Of a stretch of 64,000 nucleotides of DNA, positions 1 through 17,475 are shown in pieces. This DNA is from a virus, in IMG/VR virus record IMGVR_UViG_3300002460_000024, positions 1-64,000 of that record; one strand, 5' to 3'. The notes below the pieces were generated by a model that was given only the letters and a program-made list of their open reading frames with translations, ran no database searches and was not told where the DNA came from. Made by a program: the position numbers and the translations under genes. The number at the start of each line of letters is the position of its first letter. Within the stretch, counting starts at the first letter, position 1.

Positions 1-135
1 GGAGCCGTCGCCGTAGCCGTCGCCGTAGCCGTAGCCGTAGCCGTCGCCGGAACCCTCGCCGTCGCCGTAGCCGTAGCCGGAGCCGGAGCCGTAGCCGTAG
101 CCGTCGCCGTTATGAATATCTCCTACATCTGCCAT
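1..135 (-). CDS. Gly-rich GDGY/GSG repeat protein (runs off the window start)
   Basis: ATG at 135 overlaps the stop of the upstream ORF; reads MADVGDIHNGDGYGYGSGSGYGYGDGEGSGDG... with no stop to base 1; built from 6-bp repeat units. Confidence 0.7.
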   Translation of the reverse strand, partial: MADVGDIHNGDGYGYGSGSGYGYGDGEGSGDGYGYGYGDGYGDGS

Positions 136-4486: not shown

Positions 4487-5197
4487 ATGCAGTATATAGC
4501 GTACAGGCGAGTTTCAACGGGCAAGCAAGCTAAATCCGGTCTGGGTTTGGAAGCTCAAGAGGCTGCAATTCAACAAATAATTAAACCGGATGACGAGATT
4601 CTATTTTCATTCACAGAGGCCGAAAGCGGAAAGAATGATAAAAGACCAGAGCTATTGAAGGCTATTGCAGCCTGTAAATTACATGGGGCGACGTTATTAA
4701 TCGCAAAACTGGACAGGTTGAGCCGCAATGCATCCTTTTTATTCACATTAAGAGACTCCGGACTTAAACTGTGTATAGCCGATATGCCCCAGGCCGACGA
4801 ATTCATGATAGGTATCATGGCTGTTATTGCTGACTGGGAAGGGAAAAGAATAAGAACCAGGATAAAAGAGGCCCTGAATGCCAAGAGGTCCAGGGGAGAG
4901 TCAATGGGCACCGTCGCAAACCTAACAGGCCGGACTATGGGTAACGTCGCCAATAAACAAAAATTCATTGAGCGCCTAAAGCCTTATAAATCTACCATTC
5001 TATACTTTATTAAGGAGGGCTGGACAAACGACCTGATCTTCAAAAGAATGCCCGAATTCCACCCAGATTTTAAAAGGCCCTTTTTGGATCGTGCGGTTAA
5101 GCATGTTAGAAAGGAATATGATGAGACGCAATTATTGTTGAAAACACCACAACATACAACACCACATATATGGGATTTTTCCCAAAAGGCTGAATAA
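4487..5197 (+). CDS. Serine recombinase (resolvase family)
   Basis: YRRVST catalytic Ser motif, ESGK..KRPEL, AKLDRLSRN. Confidence 0.92.
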   Translation: MQYIAYRRVSTGKQAKSGLGLEAQEAAIQQIIKPDDEILFSFTEAESGKNDKRPELLKAIAACKLHGATLLIAKLDRLSRNASFLFTLRDSGLKLCIADMPQADEFMIGIMAVIADWEGKRIRTRIKEALNAKRSRGESMGTVANLTGRTMGNVANKQKFIERLKPYKSTILYFIKEGWTNDLIFKRMPEFHPDFKRPFLDRAVKHVRKEYDETQLLLKTPQHTTPHIWDFSQKAE

Positions 5198-7344: not shown

Positions 7345-7497
7345 GGAAAGGCTGTCAATATGCACTTCGATAAAAAGGAATTTAACGCAGACGGCAACTA
7401 TGTACCGAAGAAAACTCCGGTTCTCGGTATGCGCCAAAGAGAGGGCCATGTTATTGCTAAAGGCATTGATACCCAATCTACACAAGAAATTAACTAA
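7345..7497 (+). pseudogene. IS1595-family (ISXO2-like) transposase fragment
   Basis: Reads GKAVNMHFDKK...KKTPVLGMRQREGHVIAK, resembling the GGKxxNxH...KTPVxGMxxRxG segment of IS1595 DDE transposases. Confidence 0.6.
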
Positions 7498-7630
7498 ATA
7501 ATTTAGATTATGAATACAGATGTAAAAACAGTAGAATTAAGACAGGGATGTAAAGAGATTGAATACGGCATTGAAACCCAATTTACACTAAATAAAAGCT
7601 AAATAATTTAGATTATGAATACAGATGTAA
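7462..7630 (+). repeat. Two copies (7462-7525, 7567-7630) of a ~64-bp repeat; third copy at 17412-17475
   Basis: GGCATTGAWACCCAATYTACAC...AAATAATTTAGATTATGAATACAGATGTAA. Confidence 0.9.
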
Positions 7631-8849
7631 CAGACCCCGAAATAACCAACTTTGATTGGTTCGATATGAGTTCTATTGAGGCCACGACCGGTGAGCCGTT
7701 AACAGACAAACAAAAGTGGAAAATTATAACTTCTTTGGAAGCAATTGCCCTCCTTCCTCACCTCTTAACCAAAGAAGAGCAGATATTAGACCTTAAAAGA
7801 TTTTTATGGGCGTTCGGCCTTGTTGAGGGCGACTTTACCATTGAGGGGGTGCTCAAGGTAAATAATCCACTTTGAAGTATCAAAGTTTTTAAACTCGCAT
7901 TTTTGATTATTAATCTGTAGATAGACCTTTCCCTTTTCTTCAAAGGGATGGCCGCTGAGAAACTTTTTGGTATGGCGTAGAATAGCCCTTTTTTTCAAAG
8001 TCATTTAAAGCATCCCTAAAATTCCACTCTCCTCCCGTAATGGTGGTTCCGTCTGAAAATGTTATTCTATAATACTCATCCTTTAGGGTAATTTCGTGCG
8101 GTCTTAAAGCATCCCCTCTTTTTGTCCTCTTTCCAAAAAATCTTTTAAACCAGCCAAACTTAGCGTCTCCCCCAGTTGGTGTAGACTCATATATTGATAC
8201 CATAGTAATAATATTTACCCCAAATATAACCCTTTTATACTAAAATCTCGTCACCAATAAACAATAATACTACATTTGATACGTTTTTAGGGGTAACGCA
8301 ATTAATCTGAAATAATGAAACGTTCAATAAAATTCTGGATATTAATATTTATAGTTTTTAATATTCTTGTTACCGCCTTTGGATGGTATAAGATTCCCAC
8401 ATGGTTTAATGGACCCATTACGGCTGATAGTATTATGATTAGCCTTATGTATGTTTGTTTATACGCAATTGATGGTATGCTCCTATGTGTTTTACTTATG
8501 AATATTATTCCTAAATTTAATAAGTGGATAGATAAAAACAAAGCCCCAAAACATTAATCTCGTAGCATGATAGACTCTCCTCTCCCTCCTCATATAGAAG
8601 CCATGATGAACTGGCTCCTTGAATTATACTCTTCCAGGTCCCAGCTATATGGAGAATTAATACACCTGTGCGATCAGAAATTCGGGGAACCGTGTGAGTT
8701 TGCAAAAGCATTCCAAGATCAAGAAGAAGAAAAGGCAGCATTACAATGGTGGTCTTGCATTGAGTCGCTTTATGATTTAGAAAAGGCTCACATATTGGTG
8801 AGTAATTTAATTGGCAACGCCATTAATGTGAAAAAATGAGAATATTTAC

Positions 8850-8967
8850 TATATTTGCTGTGATTACTAATATTAACTATGCAAATACAAACTTTAAAAC
8901 CCCTTTGGCAAGATGCAGTAACATCCAAACGGTTGATATTGGTAATCCTTCTTGTCAGGGGGCTTTT
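8850..8967 (+). promoter_or_regulatory. Bacteroidota promoter plus leader attenuator upstream of the HNH gene
   Basis: TATATTTG at 8850-8857; 8862-8877 pairs with 8932-8947 inside the cccctttggcaaga/tcttgtcagggg-TTTT terminator. Confidence 0.7.
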
Positions 8968-8973
8968 AATTTT

Positions 8974-9531
8974 ATGAAGCCACACGAAAATTTTAGTTTA
9001 AAAGATATTCCCGGAGAAATTTGGAAAGATATTCCAGAATGGGAGGGCTTTTATCAAGTAAGTAATTTGGGACGAATTAAATCTTTAAAAAGAGTGGTGC
9101 CACACACACATACTGTATATTCTACACAAAAAGAAAAAATACTTAAACCGGCATCAGACAGGAAAGGATATAAATATATATGCTTATATCGAAACCATAT
9201 TAGTAAAATTAAGAAGGTCCACCGTTTAGTATTACTGGCATTTAAGCACGACTCCCCCTTAACAGTTAATCATATAAACGGTGTTGTAGATGACAATTCC
9301 TTAATAAACTTAGAATATTTATCTGCTATAGAAAACAGCAGGGCCTATCGTAGTTTAAGCAGAGAGTTACCTATGGGAGTTTATAAATATTTCAACAAAT
9401 ACATAGCAAAAATAAAAAGAAACAACAAAAATATTCATTTAGGAAGTTTTAATACAATACCAGAAGCTAAAAGCGCCTACGAAAAAGCCCGTACCCATGA
9501 ACCCACATCGCCAACAATCCATAGTAAATAA
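8974..9531 (+). CDS. NUMOD4-HNH-AP2 homing endonuclease
   Basis: EIWKDIPEWEGFYQVSNLGRIKS, VHRLV...VNHING..DDN..NLEY, HLGSFNT..EA..AY; start moved to the ATG at 8974 after the attenuator. Confidence 0.9.
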   Translation: MKPHENFSLKDIPGEIWKDIPEWEGFYQVSNLGRIKSLKRVVPHTHTVYSTQKEKILKPASDRKGYKYICLYRNHISKIKKVHRLVLLAFKHDSPLTVNHINGVVDDNSLINLEYLSAIENSRAYRSLSRELPMGVYKYFNKYIAKIKRNNKNIHLGSFNTIPEAKSAYEKARTHEPTSPTIHSK

Positions 9532-10024: not shown

Positions 10025-10118
10025 GGCTAATGGATTGGGGCTTAACGAAGTTTGCTTTATACCAAAATTAAAAAATAGAAAAATGATAAAGCAAATTTTG
10101 TTTAAGCCCGTGTTAGCC
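10025..10118. repeat. attC-like hairpin 1
   Basis: ggctaat...gggcttaacgaagtttgcttta / taaagcaaattttgtttaagccc...gttagcc; one extra base in the right arm. Confidence 0.8.
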
Positions 10119-10188
10119 GTCTGTTTTTGTTTTATTATTTTTTGAGAGGGGAGAAAAAAAGTTTAAAAATTTTATTTAAAAAATACTT

Positions 10189-10911
10189 ATGAAAAACAAT
10201 TTAGAAAAGTGGAATTACTACTTGGAGTTACTGAATGAAAAGGCAAGTGCTTTTATGGACACGATAAATCCATTAGTGCCAAGCATTTTTTACAAAGTAG
10301 AGTTGAACGGCAAAATAAATGACTGCACCGTTTTAAACAGGCACTATTCATTTGGATTATACTTTAACGGCAAGAAGCCAACGAATAAGGACATTGAAAA
10401 AATTGAAGCCGTTTTTAATAGCGAAATAGTTTTTACACCGAAGATGGCTTACTTTGATTACTCCTATGTATGGGGCATTTATGAAGGCAAAGAAAGTATA
10501 TCTAAAACGGCTATACACGTAAAAGATGTTTTTGAAAATAGGATTGCGTTTTTATCTTTTGCAGAGGCGGAAATAAAGGCGAAAGAAATTATAGAAAAAA
10601 ATGCAGAGGAAAAACTATTTAAAGAAACGCACAAGAAGGATGCTAATTATAAATATACTGAAAATGGATACAAGTTTTTAGGATGGCAAAATGGATGGAA
10701 GCACGTTTACTTTGATGCTGATGGAAATGTAACAGATGACAAAACGAAGCAAAAAACATTTGGCTACCTGACTGCCGATTATCCTGAATATGGAAAATGC
10801 AGAGAGCAAAAGCATAGAACAATTGAAGTAAGCCACAACCAAAGAGGAAGTGAGAATACAGTTAGTTGCCCGATTTGTATGATATACTGGAAATATGATT
10901 GCAGCGACTAA
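10189..10911 (+). CDS. Cassette cargo, hypothetical protein with C-terminal Cys/His cluster
   Basis: 240-aa ORF; C..H...CPIC. Confidence 0.7.
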   Translation: MKNNLEKWNYYLELLNEKASAFMDTINPLVPSIFYKVELNGKINDCTVLNRHYSFGLYFNGKKPTNKDIEKIEAVFNSEIVFTPKMAYFDYSYVWGIYEGKESISKTAIHVKDVFENRIAFLSFAEAEIKAKEIIEKNAEEKLFKETHKKDANYKYTENGYKFLGWQNGWKHVYFDADGNVTDDKTKQKTFGYLTADYPEYGKCREQKHRTIEVSHNQRGSENTVSCPICMIYWKYDCSD

Positions 10912-11224
10912 CCTCTTAATTTTTTAAAAATAGGTGAGGGCCAAAAACTATGGGCGGCCTTTAGCGCCAAAGCCTGTGTTGCCCATAGCCTTAAATCACG
11001 AAAAAATTGAGTATGAAACTAAATAGGAAAGTAACATTAGAGCCAAAGACCATTAACCTAAGAGTTGAAGATAGAATGCTTAGTATTAATTATCGAATAC
11101 GGGATGACATTACAGGAATTGGATTTGGTGATACTTGGGTTAATTTTACTCCTAGCGATAAGTTGATTGAAATATTAAAAACAGAAGTAAACGAAGCAAT
11201 TAAAAACTATAAAAAATAAACACA

Positions 11225-11578
11225 ATGGGAAATTTAATTAAACACGCAAAGTTTGAACTTGAACTAGCTGATATGTTCAATGAAAAAGGAGATTTTTACG
11301 GAGGCATGACCGCTGGTGCAGTTATGGAATTGATTAAGGTTTTTGAGAAACAAGGACATTCTGGTGGTTCGGCTCCAGGAGTAATTGCTTTGTTTTCAAA
11401 ACTAGCAAACTATGAAATAATATTTAATAGGATGAAATCAGAAATTGAAAAACAATTTGGAGTTAAAATAACAGAAGCTCCATTTACATATTTAAGTAAT
11501 GTAAAAGAAAACGAACTTATTTTATCATGCCAAAAAGATTACAATAATATGATAATGGCTGTATTGACCCCAAATTAA
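11225..11578 (+). CDS. Cassette cargo, phage hypothetical protein (QGHSGGSA motif)
   Basis: HAKFELE...ELIKVFEKQGHSGGSA; flanked by ORFs 11007-11219 and 11585-11794. Confidence 0.6.
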   Translation: MGNLIKHAKFELELADMFNEKGDFYGGMTAGAVMELIKVFEKQGHSGGSAPGVIALFSKLANYEIIFNRMKSEIEKQFGVKITEAPFTYLSNVKENELILSCQKDYNNMIMAVLTPN

Positions 11579-11882
11579 ATTTATATGAGCTTGATAGAAT
11601 CAACTATTTTTCACGGAACTAAATACTCATTTGATAAGAGTAAATTAATCTTCGTTGGCTTTTCAGAAAACGGTCTTAACCTTGTTTTTGAAACAGCAGA
11701 AGTTGAAATTACTATTACCGATATGAAAGACAGAGAGAGGCAGTACAAGGATATTATTAATGTATGGAAAAGCTACAAAGGTGATTTATTTTAATTTTTA
11801 AAAAGCGTGCAGGCCAAATTAAAAAAAGTACTAAAGAAACGAGAGGGTGAGTTTAGCTCCTACCGAAATTGCTGGTTATTCG

Positions 11883-11976
11883 GGCTAACCTCCGAGGCTT
11901 TGCGTCAGTTTTAAAAATACCAATGAAAAAAAACAGAAAAGACATTTTTAAAATTGCGTTAAAGCCGATGTTATGC
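11883..11976. repeat. attC-like hairpin 2
   Basis: ggctaac...ggctttgcgtcagttttaaaaat / atttttaaaattgcgttaaagcc...gttatgc. Confidence 0.8.
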
Positions 11977-12023
11977 TTAGTATTTTTTATCATTTTTTGT
12001 GCGAGGGCTTTACCTAACTAACT

Positions 12024-12461
12024 ATGAAAGACAGAAACTTACCACATTCGGACAATTGGGCGACACCGCCTTATGTTTACGATAAACTTAATGAGGAATA
12101 CAATTTCAATTTCGACCCATGCCCTTTGAAGCATGATATCACGAAATGGGACGGATTGGAAATTGAATGGAAGGAACGGAATTTTATTAACCCGCCTTAT
12201 TCAAAGGATCTAAAACCAAAATTCATTTTAAAGGCGGTTGATGAAATGAAGAAAGGAAAACTTTGCGTGTTATTACTGCCCGTTTCGACAAGCACAAAAC
12301 TATTCCATGATATCATCTTGGCGAACGCAACAGAGCCAGTAAAGTTTTTCAAGGGCAGAATTAAGTTTATTGGACATAATACGAAGGGAGAATTGGTAAG
12401 TAACAAAAGCCCGATGCACGATAGTATGTTAGTTGTATTCGATGGGCGGGAAAAAAAATGA
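12024..12461 (+). CDS. Phage DNA N6-adenine methyltransferase (Dam-type), cassette cargo
   Basis: WATP, FDPCP, NPPY, LLLPVSTST..FH, GRIKF. Confidence 0.88.
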   Translation: MKDRNLPHSDNWATPPYVYDKLNEEYNFNFDPCPLKHDITKWDGLEIEWKERNFINPPYSKDLKPKFILKAVDEMKKGKLCVLLLPVSTSTKLFHDIILANATEPVKFFKGRIKFIGHNTKGELVSNKSPMHDSMLVVFDGREKK

Positions 12462-12474
12462 TAAAAAATATTGA

Positions 12475-12641
12475 GCATAACTCCGAGGCTTTGCGCTGAA
12501 TTTCCTCCCTGCGGGAGATTCCGCTTACCAAGGGATGTGCGAAGGACGGAAGATTGAAAGCAGGGAGGAAATTCATTTTTTAAAAATAGGTGAGGGCCAA
12601 AAACTATGGGCGGGCCTTTAGCGCCAAAGCCTGTGTTGCCC
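12475..12641. repeat. attC-like hairpin 3 (long frame C)
   Basis: gcataac...aggctttgcgct / agcgccaaagcct...gttgccc; inner stem tgaatttcctccctgc/gcagggaggaaattca. Confidence 0.8.
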
Positions 12642-12683
12642 ATAGCCTTAAATGCTAGATAAATAAATTTAAATAACGATAAT

Positions 12684-13537
12684 ATGCAGTATAGTCCAAA
12701 ATTGAAAAAAGCAGCAGAAGAAATAAAAGCAATACTTACGAAGTATGATATTGCTGGTGTTGTATTATTACATACTCCGGGGCATAGTGAATACTTATTA
12801 CGATTAGACCCGTCTTATTCATGTGCTAATATGAATGAGAAAACAGGCGAAGTAAGATTAAAAGCTACCGAGGCATTGCATGGTAAAAAGAAACGTGACC
12901 AAATGTTAGAAGATACTACAAATATGATTGTTTGTTTATCGGACGTAACCGCTATGCAGGCCATGAATCTTATTGAACTTCGTAAATTACTTGAAACTAA
13001 ATTTGAAATAATAACACAGGATAACGGGCATACCACCCATGATACACAAAACAATTAAAACAAAAATTATGAATGAAAAACAAATGCTACAGTCCGCAGT
13101 AAATGAACTTCGTGGATTAAGAAAACAAAACGAAATTATGAAAGCTCGTTTAGATATGTTCGATACTATGACAGCAATATTGCACACAGATATTGCAAGG
13201 CAAAACGGAGATGCAATGCACCCTGATATTGTTTATGAAATTGATAAATATTTAACTAACTTAGAAAAAGAAGCCACCAATGAAACCAATTAAATTTCCA
13301 GAGGTTAATAAAACCTACGCAGAAAATCAACCTGAATATTTGCCGTTGCCAGTATTTAAAGCAGATACCCCACAAGGCGAATGTGTTTCTTGCTGGAAAC
13401 TTTCTTTTCGTGAAAGGATTAGAATATTATTTACAGGCAAGTTGTGGGTAAGTCTGCTTACATTTAATAAGCCACTTACTCCTTCTTATTTTACAACGAA
13501 GAAATCGGAAGTATTAACCTTTTCAAAAAATGAGTAG
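12684..13537 (+). CDS. Three-gene cassette cargo (124, 84 and 85 aa hypothetical phage proteins)
   Basis: Overlapping ORFs 12684-13058, 13039-13293, 13280-13537. Confidence 0.65.
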
Positions 13538-13657
13538 CATTTTTAAGGGGATTTTTAAAAAAAGCATAGCCTCGGAGGTTGCCCACAAAGGCGTATGGCC
13601 AAGCACAGTAAAGCAAACGTTTTTCAGTTTGCGATGTGGTTGCCGTTTTAAGGTTGT

Positions 13658-13809
13658 GGGCAACGGTTTCGTGTTGCCGAAGTTGATGGCGAGAAGAAGG
13701 AATAAAGGGGCCTTTAGCGCCAAAGGCAATGCGGGTTTATTCGTTCTTTAAAAGCCAGAAACAAGGTCAAACTTTCATCCCATCAATTTTGAGCAACACA
13801 TTGATAGGC
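13658..13809. repeat. attC-like hairpin 4 (long frame A), GAT core
   Basis: gggcaac...gtgttgccgaagttgatgg / ccatcaattttgagcaacac...gataggc. Confidence 0.82.
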
Positions 13810-13950
13810 TAAGTTTACCGGGGGAGTTGCAGATACCTTTAGAAAGTTTGTCACGAAACCGATAGGCTAAATTTAGGATGAGAGGTTTGAAAATTAATTG
13901 GCGAAATTTTGTAAAAATTTAAAAAGTAAACTAATAAATAAACGAAAAGT

Positions 13951-14250
13951 ATGGGATTATTCAGTAAAACACCTAAAGTAGAATTGCTACCGTTAGGCCA
14001 TAAAGTAGAATTAGGTACTCGATTTTGGAAAGTTTTTGAAAGCAAAGTTTATGAATGTCATGTTGCAAGACTTTCAATAAGCCGTTCTGATGAATTATTT
14101 TTATCGCAGAACCCAAGTAGTAATTATGATGAAACAAAGTATTTAATTCATACTATTTGCGACAAGCATGTTGGTTGGTTTCACGAAGAGGAAGTGGTTA
14201 AGATGATAAAGTTTAAAACAAAAAAAGAACTTTATGAAAGTGATAACTAA
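13951..14250 (+). CDS. Cassette cargo, hypothetical protein
   Basis: 99-aa ORF inside frame A. Confidence 0.65.
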   Translation: MGLFSKTPKVELLPLGHKVELGTRFWKVFESKVYECHVARLSISRSDELFLSQNPSSNYDETKYLIHTICDKHVGWFHEEEVVKMIKFKTKKELYESDN

Positions 14251-14336
14251 ACCTTTTAGCAGCTATGCTGCCCCGCCAATTCTTTTTTTAAACAGAGCAG
14301 CCGTGTGCGGTTTTGGGTTGTGGAGAGGTAAATTTA

Positions 14337-14415
14337 GCCTATCGTTGACGGGTATGCGTTCGGTTTTGCTCCAAAAAATAACACGGCAAAACTGACGACA
14401 TACCCGATGTTACAG
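14337..14415. repeat. attC-like hairpin 5
   Basis: gcctatc...cgggtatgcgttcggttttgc / gcaaaactgacgacatacccg...gttacag. Confidence 0.82.
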
Positions 14416-14469
14416 GCAGTTAAAAATGGCTAAACGAAAATTAATATAAACAACTAAAACAAAACAACT

Positions 14470-14754
14470 ATGTGTACAGTATCAATGATTGGAGACCACT
14501 TCAATGACAAATGGAAACAACCATTTTATCAGCAAACTTTTACCAACATTCCCGAAATTACGAAGGCGGAATTTGATGCACTCAAAAAGGAAGTTGAAGA
14601 AATGAAAGCATTGCTAAAGAGAGCAAAGTTATATGACGAAAAGAATGGAGAACCGAATTGCGAAATGGATGAGAAGATGACAATGCTTAGAAAATTTGCC
14701 GAAGCAGTTGGTATAAGTTTGGACGACATCATTAAGAAACCAGATGCCAAATAG
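14470..14754 (+). CDS. Cassette cargo, phage hypothetical protein (MCTVSMIGD start)
   Basis: 94 aa; the stop codon lies in the terminal inverted arm of the cassette. Confidence 0.75.
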   Translation: MCTVSMIGDHFNDKWKQPFYQQTFTNIPEITKAEFDALKKEVEEMKALLKRAKLYDEKNGEPNCEMDEKMTMLRKFAEAVGISLDDIIKKPDAK

Positions 14755-14768
14755 CCATTTTTTATTGC

Positions 14769-14898
14769 CTGTAACCGGACAAGCCTTTATTTAGTGCGGG
14801 CTTAAAAGCACTAAGCAACAATTAAAGATAAAAGATTATGGAAAGCACAAAAGTTGATAATAGCACAGAACCCGCATTGAATAAAGGCATTGTTAGCA
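14769..14898. repeat. attC-like hairpin 6
   Basis: ctgtaac...gcctttatttagtgcggg / cccgcattgaataaaggc...gttagca. Confidence 0.85.
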
Positions 14899-15074
14899 GC
14901 AGTACGGCATTAGAACCGAAAGTTGTTAATCACGGGAATGTGTTTGGAACAAAGAACTGGTACACATTTTATTGCCCACATTGTGGAAGCCAAATAACAA
15001 ACAGAAGTGCAAATTGCGAAGGAAGTTATCCAATTAAAGGATGTAATGGGGCAATAAAATGGAACGAGAAGTAG
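14838..15074 (+). CDS. Cassette cargo, small Zn-ribbon protein starting inside the hairpin loop
   Basis: CPHC...C...C; ATG at 14838 lies between the arms of hairpin 6. Confidence 0.7.
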   Translation: MESTKVDNSTEPALNKGIVSSSTALEPKVVNHGNVFGTKNWYTFYCPHCGSQITNRSANCEGSYPIKGCNGAIKWNEK

Positions 15075-15080
15075 TATTGC

Positions 15081-15915
15081 TGCTAACGGCTGCGGAATAA
15101 CAGCAGTTTCTTTAGTACGTTTTAATTTTAAGGTGGGATTTTAAAAATAAATTATATGAATGGAAAAAGTTTAAAAGTTCAGAAAGCTGAAAAGTTTGTA
15201 GATGATTTTATTAAATCAGAAGGGCATACGCCCACCTACAATGATGTAAAAGAATACATGGGCTTTAAGAGCAATGCTCAAGCCTATGGTATTTGTGCAA
15301 AATTCAGAGATAAAATGAAGGCAATTACTAAAAACGAAAAGAGAATACATATTGAGATTGATGATGAAAACCAAATTATGGTTAGCCGAAAAGGATTTAA
15401 CAACTACGAGGCACTTGGAGTTTTAGAGGCTACCGTTTTGATGGTTAAAAATGAAATATTAATAAGTATAAACAAGGGTAAATAATTATGAATCAGTTAG
15501 ACATAATAAAAGAAGAACTCGAAGATTGCTATGATTTATGGAGTAGATTTAGTTGTGACTGCCTTCATTATTATATGCTATATCTTGAAAAAAGGAAACG
15601 TCAATTAGAAATCATAAACAATTAAATGTATGTACTACCATAACACTACTAAAAACCTATTAAACGAATCAGAGTTTGAAGATTTCTACTGGAACTACGA
15701 GGAAGGGGATTCAATCTTTAAAACGGAACGTGGAAATGCAATACTTATACCAATGACCTACGAGGAGGTAATTGAAAAGGCAAAGCATGATAATATAGTC
15801 GAAGAATAGTTCTTTTAATTTTTAAAAAGCGGGATGGCCAAATTAAAAAAAGTACTAAAGAAACGAGAGGGTGAGTTTAGCTACTACCGAAATTGCTGGT
15901 TATTCAGTGTTAGCC
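15081..15915. repeat. attC-like hairpin 7 (long frame B) with a gene-containing loop
   Basis: tgctaac...gaataacagcagtttc (15095-15110) / gaaattgctggttattc (15889-15905)...gttagcc. Confidence 0.75.
15156..15485 (+). CDS. LexA-N-like winged-helix DNA-binding protein (cassette cargo)
   Basis: FIKSEGHTPTYNDVKEYMGFKS; followed by small ORFs 15488-15625 and 15630-15809. Confidence 0.6.
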   Translation: MNGKSLKVQKAEKFVDDFIKSEGHTPTYNDVKEYMGFKSNAQAYGICAKFRDKMKAITKNEKRIHIEIDDENQIMVSRKGFNNYEALGVLEATVLMVKNEILISINKGK

Positions 15916-16060
15916 TGAGTGCCATGCTAATAGGTGAACGCAAAGCTAAACGAACAAGGAGTTGGCTTATTCCGCAGCCGTTAGCCCGAATCGGGTTGGC
16001 GCAACAAAGTAAAGTCCTCCATTTTAGAGGACGATTTGTTGCCTGTTGTGGTGGCATTCG

Positions 16061-16211
16061 GGCTAACGGTTTCGTGTTGCCGAAGTTGATGGCGAGAAGA
16101 AGGAATAAAGGGGGCTGTGCGGCCAAAGGCTTGCGGGTTTATTCGTTCTTTAAAAGCCAGAAACAAGGTCAAACTTTCATCCCATCAATTTTGTGCAACA
16201 CATTGATAGGC
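16061..16211. repeat. attC-like hairpin 8 (second copy of frame A)
   Basis: Near-identical to 13664-13809 starting exactly at AAC. Confidence 0.85.
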
Positions 16212-16335
16212 GAAGTTTACCGGGGCCGTTGCAGATACCTAAAGAAAGTTTGTCACGAAACCGATAGGCTAAATTTAGGATGCGAGGTTTAAAAATTAAT
16301 TGGCGAAATTTTGAAAAAATTTAAAATTTAAATAT

Positions 16336-16871
16336 ATGAGTACAGAAAACATAGAACAATGCCCAGAGTTTCCATACTTCGGAGCCTCTTATCCTGATGC
16401 AAGATGTGTAAGTGGATATTTACACGATATGGATAGCTGTGATGAACATGGTAATTTATATGTAATGAGTGAAAGTCACCCATGCCCATTTTGTAATACA
16501 AAAGAATTTTTAAAAAACCAACGGGACAATGAGGCTGATATGACCAAAGTGAAAAAATGGATGGAAAATATTAAAAACGAATATAGCTATAAATAATTAT
16601 GAAAGACTTATTAAAGCTCCTATGGGAAAAGAAATGGGAAGCCGATGAAGAATATACTAAAAATGCAAATAGATATTCAGAAGGCAAAAGTGATGCTTTT
16701 TTATTTTGCATAAATGAAATTCAACATCCAAAATGTAAAGCGGATATTAAAGTTTTGGTGAATGGAAGGGTGGGTTATACTACCTCTGTTGTGGCTCATT
16801 CGGGGGGTATATACCCAGTATGGTTTGATGGTGGCGTGGAGTTTGTAAATGCTAAAGACGTAACCTTTTAA
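16336..16871 (+). CDS. Two-gene cassette cargo (86-aa Cys-rich and 90-aa hypothetical proteins)
   Basis: ORFs 16336-16596 and 16599-16871. Confidence 0.65.
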
Positions 16872-16948
16872 CAGCTATGCTGTACCGCCAATTCTTTTTT
16901 TTAACAGAGCAGCCGTGTGTGACTTTGGGTTGTGGGGAGGTAAATTTA

Positions 16949-17040
16949 GCCTATCATATATCTGTATTTATCACAATGCAACATATTTAAAAACAGTACG
17001 TTAAATACGGTATATTTCAAACAATGAAAAAACGATTGTA
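16949..17040. other. attI-like junction
   Basis: The last core site, gcctat^c, is followed by AT-rich DNA with no hairpin and then the recombinase ATG. Confidence 0.55.
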
Positions 17041-17436
17041 ATGAATATAGATAGATGGTCAGAGCAATTCGAGAAGGATATGCAAGTAATTCGTAATAGC
17101 CAAAGCACCCGTGATAATTATGGGTGCCAGGTTAAAATGTTTTTGGCATACTTTGAAAAACTCAACTACACTTCTCCTGAAAGAATTAATGCGGAAAAGA
17201 TAAAAGATTATTTGCTTACAAAAATTAGCAATAACAATCAGCGTCACGCCCATTCTGCTATAAAACATTTCTATAAAATTACAGTTCACCAGGAGCTTAA
17301 GTTTAGATTTATTCAATATGCGGAAAAAGAGAAGAGGCATCCCATAATTTTAAGCAGGGAGGAAACTAAAAGATGGTTTGAGGCGTGTACTAATGTAAAG
17401 CATAAGTGCATGGCATTGAAACCCAATTTACACTAA
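17041..17436 (+). pseudogene. Truncated tyrosine recombinase (integron-integrase/Xer-like N-terminal SAM domain)
   Basis: RNSQSTRDNY, IKDYL, SAIKHFYK, KRHPIILSREE, NVKHK; cut at 17412 by the 64-bp repeat before the catalytic R-H-R-Y residues. Confidence 0.85.
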
Positions 17437-17475
17437 ACAAAAAGCAAATAATTTAGATTATGAATACAGATGTAA
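17412..17475 (+). repeat. Third copy of the 64-bp GGCATTG repeat
   Basis: Matches 7567-7630; supplies the MNTDV start of ORF 17460-17708. Confidence 0.9.

Follow-up and report, generated by a model that had tools for sequence, protein, structure and literature searches.

In the attC sites of classical integrons, the left half R''-L'' (RYYYAAC...) is an inverted repeat of the right half L'-R' (...GTTRRRY) (PMC3053210, PMC12901181, PMC5027507). Two opposed simple sites, 1L-2L and 2R-1R, lie between RYYYAAC and GTTRRRY (PMC3053210), and the bottom strand is cleaved at the 5'-AAC-3' of its R box, between bases one and two of R' (PMC5027507, PMC12901181). Because this crossover falls inside R', the R' of a circular cassette spans the circle junction, and R''-L'' is its internal antisense copy. 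Canonical integrons have been reported in phages (PMC9892861). Here we describe an integron-like cassette array in a 64,000-nucleotide stretch of phage DNA (the window; positions 1 to 64,000 of IMG/VR record IMGVR_UViG_3300002460_000024, which is 74.8 kilobases (kb) in length and has genes including GroEL, Erf and virion genes). The cassettes of this array carry internal inverse copies of their own junctions, and such a copy is probably the complementary arm of an attC-like recombination site that folds as a single strand and has a long, cassette-specific R box. The first-pass annotation of the window, which reported the copies, knew of no equivalent in classical integron cassettes; R''-L'' of attC is such an equivalent.

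The units of the array are bounded by junctions of the form ..(T/C)A(A/T)|C.., which lie after positions 10030, 11888, 12480, 13663, 14342, 14774, 15086, 16066 and 16954. Homology break-points between repeats D2, D5, D6, D10 and D13 also mark unit ends. All open reading frames (ORFs) of the array are on the + strand and point toward an attI-like site and a recombinase gene. When the interior of each unit was aligned with its own junction in reverse complement, a junction-spanning inverse copy was located in every unit from 11889 to 16954. Along the array, junctions J, in which a unit end meets a unit start (E|S, ..TAA|CGG..), alternate with inverse sites I (S'|E', ..CCG|TTA..), and each unit reads S-x-S'|E'-y-E. 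Units 3, 4, 7 and 8 each hold two inverse copies, here called I-1 and I-2. The features discussed are as follows.

10031-16954, + strand: integron-like cassette array, delimited by junction contexts, repeat homology break-points and the cassette swap in contig L005 (see below)
11889-12480, + strand: unit 2, with Dam methyltransferase cargo; one inverse copy of its own junction, 11961-11988
12481-13663, + strand: unit 3, with three ORFs; I-1 at 12620-12652, near-perfect I-2 at 13564-13588
13664-14342, + strand: unit 4, with ORF 13951-14250; I-1 at 13793-13819 (bulge and G.T wobble), perfect I-2 at 13852-13875
14343-14774, + strand: unit 5; one inverse copy, 14395-14427
14775-15086, + strand: unit 6; one inverse copy, 14880-14905, within ORF 14838-15074
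15087-16066, + strand: unit 7, with three ORFs in the loop; I-1 at 15895-15924, perfect I-2 at 15967-15991
16067-16954, + strand: unit 8; I-1 at 16195-16221, perfect I-2 at 16254-16277
16955-17040, + strand: constant attI-like region (CATATATCTGTA...), common to the window and L005 despite different last cassettes
17041-17436, + strand: truncated tyrosine recombinase, with a SAM-like domain at the N terminus and the beginning of the catalytic domain (Pfam PF13495, PF02899)

The initial report had singled out four copies, all of them I-2, as complementary to the unit's own end and start, and the copies do vary together with these sequences from cassette to cassette. A script check reproduced the exact 25-nucleotide reverse complement of [16056-16066]+[15087-15100] at 15967-15991, and the exact 24-nucleotide reverse complements of [14329-14342]+[13664-13673] at 13852-13875 and of [16941-16954]+[16067-16076] at 16254-16277. 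The fourth copy, at 13564-13588, matches [13654-13663]+[12481-12494] with the one indel and one mismatch that had been given. However, this is not its best composite: from the permutation test and the sequence, the end of unit 3 followed by the start of unit 2 appears to fit better, with one mismatch and no indel. For the 25-mer, no chance matches are expected at three or fewer mismatches (100 shuffles). In the permutation test, the own end-plus-start composite scores 26-50 within its unit, versus a mean of 14-19 for the composites of other units. When abutting inverted repeats were searched for in general, noise from AT-rich sequence dominated the output.

Although all four cases are real, they are not all independent. 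Units 4 and 8 are built on a common non-coding frame (about 285 nucleotides at the 5' end and 94 nucleotides at the 3' end) that is 90% identical and surrounds unrelated genes. The copies at 13852 and 16254 both lie in this duplicated frame (repeats D2, D6 and D10), and there are therefore three independent cases. Two further claims did not hold. The short units, said to show no copy, have them at 11961-11988, 14395-14427 and 14880-14905, with gaps of 2-4 nucleotides next to the crossover; in unit 2 the gap is of three nucleotides, beside the crossover G|TTA at 11970|11971. The target of a copy had also been thought to exist only after a unit's end is joined to its start. Each half of a copy has its partner within the linear unit, and the array-form junction 15076-15100 is already complementary to 15967-15991 at 22 of 25 positions (a match found on the minus strand), so that the target is nearly present before circularization.

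The prediction that the copies mark the cassette boundaries is borne out by a metagenome contig, L005, which represents the same phage (99-100% identity) with three differences. In place of 16067-16954 this contig has another cassette. The swap starts within 16066-16068 (..GGGCTAA|CG), and its other end is exactly 16954|16955 (..T|CATATATC in one and ..A|CATATATC in the other), in agreement with the boundaries 16066|16067 and 16954|16955 (..|CATATATCTG) that the copies predict. The only cassette that differs between the two is the one adjoining the recombinase gene. Given so precise a replacement, the units are, on this comparison, real cassettes that are exchanged at exactly these points, with boundaries right to the base. 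The crossover would lie within the core triplet, at AA|C on the folding strand and G|TT on the other. The second difference is an extra ORF of 206 amino acids between the attI-like region and the recombinase gene (L005 574-1188, versus window 17007-17035), which encodes a GIY-YIG nuclease domain together with a second SAM-like domain of the integrase type. The third is in the recombinase gene, which in L005 lacks the stretch with the first catalytic Arg (the Arg-I region), a lesion different from that in the window.

Related loci were collected around homologues of the recombinase, in viral contigs (L006-L010) and in bacterial metagenome-assembled genomes (L024-L029; Ignavibacteriae, Flavobacterium and others). 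About ten independent loci with unrelated sequences have the same layout, upstream of an intact recombinase homologue and on the same strand. Their ORFs are flanked by G|TTAnnnnGCAGT near the 5' end and ATTGCnnnnTAA|CG(G/T) at the 3' end, and a hairpin of 66-130 nucleotides follows each junction. The variable core agrees with the cassette's own 3' end and not with that of its neighbour. Over 13 nucleotides, E' matches its own E at 11-13 positions in correctly registered rows, versus a mean of 6 for the E of the upstream neighbour, and the own match is the higher in 15 of 16 cases. Across 33 cassettes, all four Watson-Crick pairs are seen at R-box positions 4-7. Positions 1-3 and 8-11 are largely conserved, and 25 of these cassettes have a G.T wobble (+ strand) at position 10. 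In the literature searched there was no description of this family of arrays with a Xer-size recombinase, and the family, found in Bacteroidota-type phages and bacteria, is apparently undescribed.

Folded as single-stranded DNA (ssDNA), the short-loop sites form an R-box stem of 13-15 base pairs with AAC/GTT cores, an asymmetric internal loop with 4-5 unpaired nucleotides on the 5' side, a second stem, and a large loop. Seventeen folded sites, from the window and five related loci, have the pattern ..TAA|C-(4-5 nucleotides unpaired)-stem..loop..stem-(0-3 nucleotides)-G|TTA... In unit 5, for example, the inverse copy gives a 66-nucleotide hairpin in which GTTGA is unpaired on the 5' side. The mean fold energy is -27.9 kcal/mol for the circle form of the sites, which has the cassette's own E, versus -19.4 kcal/mol for the array form, which has the neighbour's E. 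When whole units are folded as ssDNA, the S/S' and E'/E stems form in both the linear and the circular molecule, with similar energies. Circularization therefore adds helix continuity and not pairing.

These observations suggest how an attC-like site would operate here. Arm S'|E' would pair with arm E|S, which holds the crossover 5'-..(T/C)A(A/T)|C..-3' on the + strand. As the crossover is within the E|S arm, this arm would be in one piece only in the excised circle, and in the array its E half would come from the upstream neighbour. The recombinase may cleave the folded + strand at AA|C, much as IntI cleaves the attC bottom strand, and circles may reinsert at the attI-like site adjoining the recombinase gene. 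A requirement for complete R-box pairing when the circle integrates could be what maintains complementarity to the own arm.

The recombinase gene of the window is a remnant that stops at repeat D4. Among NCBIfam models, TIGR02249 (integron-integrase) scores best, at 6e-11, a fragment-level score below the cut-off. The alignment to this model is confined to residues 45-121 of the C-terminal piece, whereas the XerA model aligns end to end. Repeat D4 (17403-17475, 7453-7525 and 7558-7630) comprises the end of a small gene and the start of the next gene, ..ATGAATACAGATGTAA, which suggests that the truncation is a replacement by recombination with a paralogous gene module. Full-length homologues are 267-312 amino acids long and retain the R, K, HxxR, H and Y residues. 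In one of them (P0001) these are spaced R134-K159-H223-R226-H249-Y259, and the corresponding residues of IntI1 are R146-K171-H277-R280-H303-Y312 (PMC3053210). The distance from Lys to His is thus 64 amino acids in P0001 versus 106 in IntI1, and the IntI-specific extra domain is therefore absent. An AT-rich sequence similar to the attI-like region follows the last junction in L007, L024, L027, L028 and L029, 51-67 nucleotides before the recombinase start. With the window included, the distance from the last junction to the recombinase start is 51-87 nucleotides.

Several points weigh against an attC-like site. According to Messier & Roy 2001 (as cited in PMC4792948), attC recombination requires the IntI-specific extra domain, and judged by its residues the recombinase family here is without this domain. 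Present activity of the enzyme is doubtful, to go by the gene, because it is broken in both variants of the phage, the window and L005. In units 3 and 7, the stems would have to close gene-holding loops of about 0.9-1.1 kb. The strand asymmetry of the R box rests almost wholly on position 10, and this asymmetry could as well arise from two different protein-binding half-sites in duplex DNA. Since the related cassettes were chosen by complementarity, their 'own' scores are inflated, although the scores against neighbours and the permutation test are unaffected. The exchange points are deduced from the comparison of sequences. As for the second copies, the conservation signal for I-2 alone in the frames of units 4 and 8 is weak (P = 0.07), and about 20 further delimited cassettes of related loci have a single inverse copy or none above the score threshold. 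A further pattern scan found 17 more viral loci, but the strict caller chained few cassettes in these, so the rarity of second copies rests on the same 20 or so.

The two kinds of inverse copy differ in form. I-1 has the unpaired spacer and one or more G.T wobbles, as is typical of the family, while I-2 has neither bulge nor wobble and is exact in three units. I-2 lies 58, 71 or 943 nucleotides downstream of I-1, and the circle junction can pair with either arm, more strongly with I-2 by 1-12 kcal/mol. In units 3 and 7, I-2 and the unit end close a conserved hairpin module of 64-65 nucleotides, located at the 3' end of the three-gene block. In unit 3 the 65-nucleotide structured hairpin 13589-13653 fills the space between I-2 and the unit end, and in unit 7 a hairpin of 64 nucleotides, 15992-16055, is followed by the end arm 16056-16066. 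The module has the pattern GGCGCAA..GTAAAG-small hairpin-GAT..TTGCC with a bulged G, and is terminator-like on the + strand. With a third example at L029 148-206, it is seen between perfect R-box arms at the ends of multi-gene cassettes. The genes of units 3 and 7 are inside the loop between S and S'(2), and those of unit 7 also between S and S'(1). We considered strand choice as the cause of this arrangement and rejected it by reasoning, as an inverted palindromic site keeps the layout.

For I-2 we consider a second arm, a switch and a templated scar. We regard functional alternative arms as more likely than neutral scars, and this is the weakest step of our interpretation. The view that I-2 is a non-functional scar, and that only I-1 works, is possible but doubtful, and it fares best among the alternatives. 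The scar would be either a copy of a circular or tandem junction, templated by quasi-palindrome template switching, or what is left of an inverted duplication or insertion. The lack of the bulge and the G.T wobble fits this view, as does the sharp limit of I-2 at 24-25 nucleotides, with no flanking homology. I-2 is known only from the window phage, whose recombinase is dead, and there is other decay in the array in the form of a 154-nucleotide microhomology deletion in unit 1 and orphan repeats. However, S, I-2 and E are together unchanged over 48 nucleotides in the two copies of the 10%-diverged frame (P = 0.005), a result that for I-2 by itself is weak, as given above. In addition, L029 (135-219) has a related 3' hairpin module with a perfect 13-base-pair stem, adjacent to an intact recombinase. 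Two particular origins of a scar were tried and set aside. The 943-nucleotide stretch that separates the two copies of unit 3 contains nothing above chance that is inverse to its own ends, which leaves a nested inverted cassette unsupported, and the typical and perfect halves come in an order at odds with a simple inverted insertion.

A specific function for I-2, as an alternative arm that competes with I-1 for the junction, is rather unlikely in our estimation. Such an arm would serve as a cassette-borne lock or switch, or would give a Xer-type enzyme that lacks the IntI domain a duplex-like substrate to act on. As a switch, it would draw the junction into a helix of 24-25 base pairs without bulge or wobble, and so set whether the site recombines.

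We think it improbable that the copy acts on the linear strand as a splint, pairing with the start and the end of its cassette within the array and aligning both cleavage points for one recombinase assembly. Each half of the copy does have its partner in the unit, and linear whole units form the required stems with energies like those of circular ones. However, a splint requires stems that close loops of 0.2-1.1 kb in a double-stranded DNA (dsDNA) phage, when short local hairpins (66-198 nucleotides) are present and are what the relatives conserve.

It is very unlikely that the element acts primarily as RNA, with the stems serving as terminators, RNase III sites, mRNA-stabilizing stems or a guide RNA like the bridge RNAs of IS110. 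The folding strand is the mRNA strand, with ORFs and AA|C sites both on +, and the wobbles are G.U-compatible. The 3' hairpins of units 3 and 7 precede the T-rich start of the next unit, and a scan labels 16014-16032 as terminator-like. The boundaries of DNA exchange nevertheless coincide with the helix, and conserved AAC/GTT cores and a recombinase gene go with the sites in all relatives. Rfam gives no match, and the scanned cassette ORFs include no DEDD or HUH transposase. RNA roles could exist alongside a role in DNA.

Duplex inverted sites for DNA inversion, flipping a gene segment in the manner of a shufflon or invertase, are the least probable explanation of all: inverted repeats do flank every array segment and the recombinase is Xer-like, a kind that normally works on duplex sites, but the variable cores covary between arms although one enzyme serves all cassettes, which fits pairing and not sequence recognition, the post-crossover sequences differ between junctions (CGGTTT, CGTTGA, CTCCGA, CATATA) and so leave no shared overlap of 6-8 base pairs for two-strand exchange, and the one variant seen is a cassette replacement and not an inversion.

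Unit 1 shows signs of decay. Its 3' end (11786-11888) duplicates the 3' end of unit 7 (15810-16066) minus 15906-16059. The missing 154 nucleotides, flanked by short ATTC repeats, included the hairpin as well as the two inverse copies, and the site seems to have been lost through a microhomology deletion. Repeat D8 is a 77-nucleotide structured module in two copies (10920-10996 and 12577-12653). The second provides I-1 of unit 3. As the first, in unit 1, is an orphan arm without a matching end, unit 1 may be a fusion of decayed cassettes. Units 2 and 3 open with an identical stretch of 15 nucleotides, CTCCGAGGCTTTGCG (11889-11904 and 12481-12495), which has the look of a start arm duplicated upon insertion of unit 2, or of a crossover displaced into the stretch.

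The cargo of the array includes a Tad3-like protein (11225-11578; Pfam PF25185, type I Thoeris inhibitor, 8.5e-15, over the curated cut-off) and a Dam-type N6-adenine methyltransferase (12024-12461). Because it carries these two genes, the array looks like a swappable store of counter-defence genes of the phage. The other scanned cassette ORFs are unknowns. Upstream of the array are a serine recombinase with a resolvase domain (4487-5197) and a gene resembling a NUMOD4/HNH homing endonuclease (8836-9531), and the start of the window (1-115) is a 12-nucleotide periodic repeat, GCCGTAGCCGTC. Searches for close relatives of the window gave no match in the phage collection and no exact 21-mer in the viral contigs, and two anchor genes have no close protein relatives among these contigs. 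An RNA scan of the window revealed nothing relevant in Rfam and no tRNAs, and scans for promoters and terminators were at background level. A search of sequencing runs for the window listed 12 DNA runs, from groundwater and soil, and no RNA run.

The analysis yields a rule for the array family, in which the 5' arm of a cassette matches its own 3' end over about 13 nucleotides, including the cassette-specific core. This rule fixes cassette boundaries to the base and is indirect evidence for circular intermediates. It also predicts an asymmetry, in that integration would start from a circle with complete R-box pairing and excision from an array site where the pairing is only partial. An attC-like logic would thus be possible without the IntI-specific domain, which bears on the origin of integrons from Xer-like enzymes (PMC4792948).

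Among known systems, the array can be compared with four. The mobile promoter-stem-loop (PeSL) cassettes of T4-type phages, reportedly described by Arbiol et al. in 2010, are said to be accessory genes bounded by repeated stem-loops that mediate shuffling. The likeness is in the small accessory genes, the plastic region of a phage genome and the bounding stem-loops. However, PeSL shuffling is thought to proceed by homologous recombination via conserved repeats, while the boundaries here are exact to the nucleotide and have almost no sequence in common.

IS110 elements and IS200/IS605 elements carry a DEDD or HUH transposase in each element and act via RNA or short guides of four nucleotides. 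They resemble the array in having an element-borne sequence complementary to their own circle junction or cleavage site. Scans of the cassette ORFs with Pfam and PHROG, which covered all but a few small ones, found no DEDD or HUH/Y1 transposase; in contrast to these elements, the sites of the array have integron-type cores and one shared tyrosine recombinase.

In CTX-phi, an ssDNA phage, two inverted dif-like sites are used by XerCD, one strand is exchanged and replication resolves the product. Its folded attP (PMC4792948) is similar to our sites in that an internal inverted copy of the site folds into a duplex-like substrate for a Xer-type enzyme. CTX-phi differs in that a whole ssDNA phage enters the host dif, and has neither a cassette array in a dsDNA phage nor cassette-specific, covarying arms.

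The closest likeness is to integrons. The sites are imperfect palindromes with an AAC...GTT core pair in which the left half inverts the right half, the crossover 5'-AA|C-3' is in one arm, and the sequence beyond it is the neighbour's in the array and the cassette's own in the circle. Both have an unpaired spacer between two stems and a large variable loop, and cargo of the counter-defence or defence type; the putative insertion site beside the recombinase start would be a further likeness. With the minus strand taken as the classical top strand, the recombinase gene is divergent, followed by the attI-like site and by cassettes that run from TTA.. to ..G. Compared with integrons sensu stricto, the cassette sites are likewise palindromic, with cores, two paired boxes and a spacer, but the R box has 13 base pairs and not 7. 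By sequence comparison, the crossover lies in the core triplet in both. In contrast, the orientation of the ORFs does not suit reading from a promoter at the attI/intI end, and the recombinase is of Xer size and has no extra domain (I2 helix) between Lys and HxxR. About 13 nucleotides beyond the crossover are involved here, where attC has 6, with a cassette-specific core of 4-5 nucleotides and a conserved G.T wobble at position 10. The ORFs are on the folding strand, with each hairpin upstream of its gene, some sites have genes in the loop, and four cassettes have a second arm without bulge or wobble. Relative to integrons, what is novel in this array is the length of the arms and their cassette-specific core.

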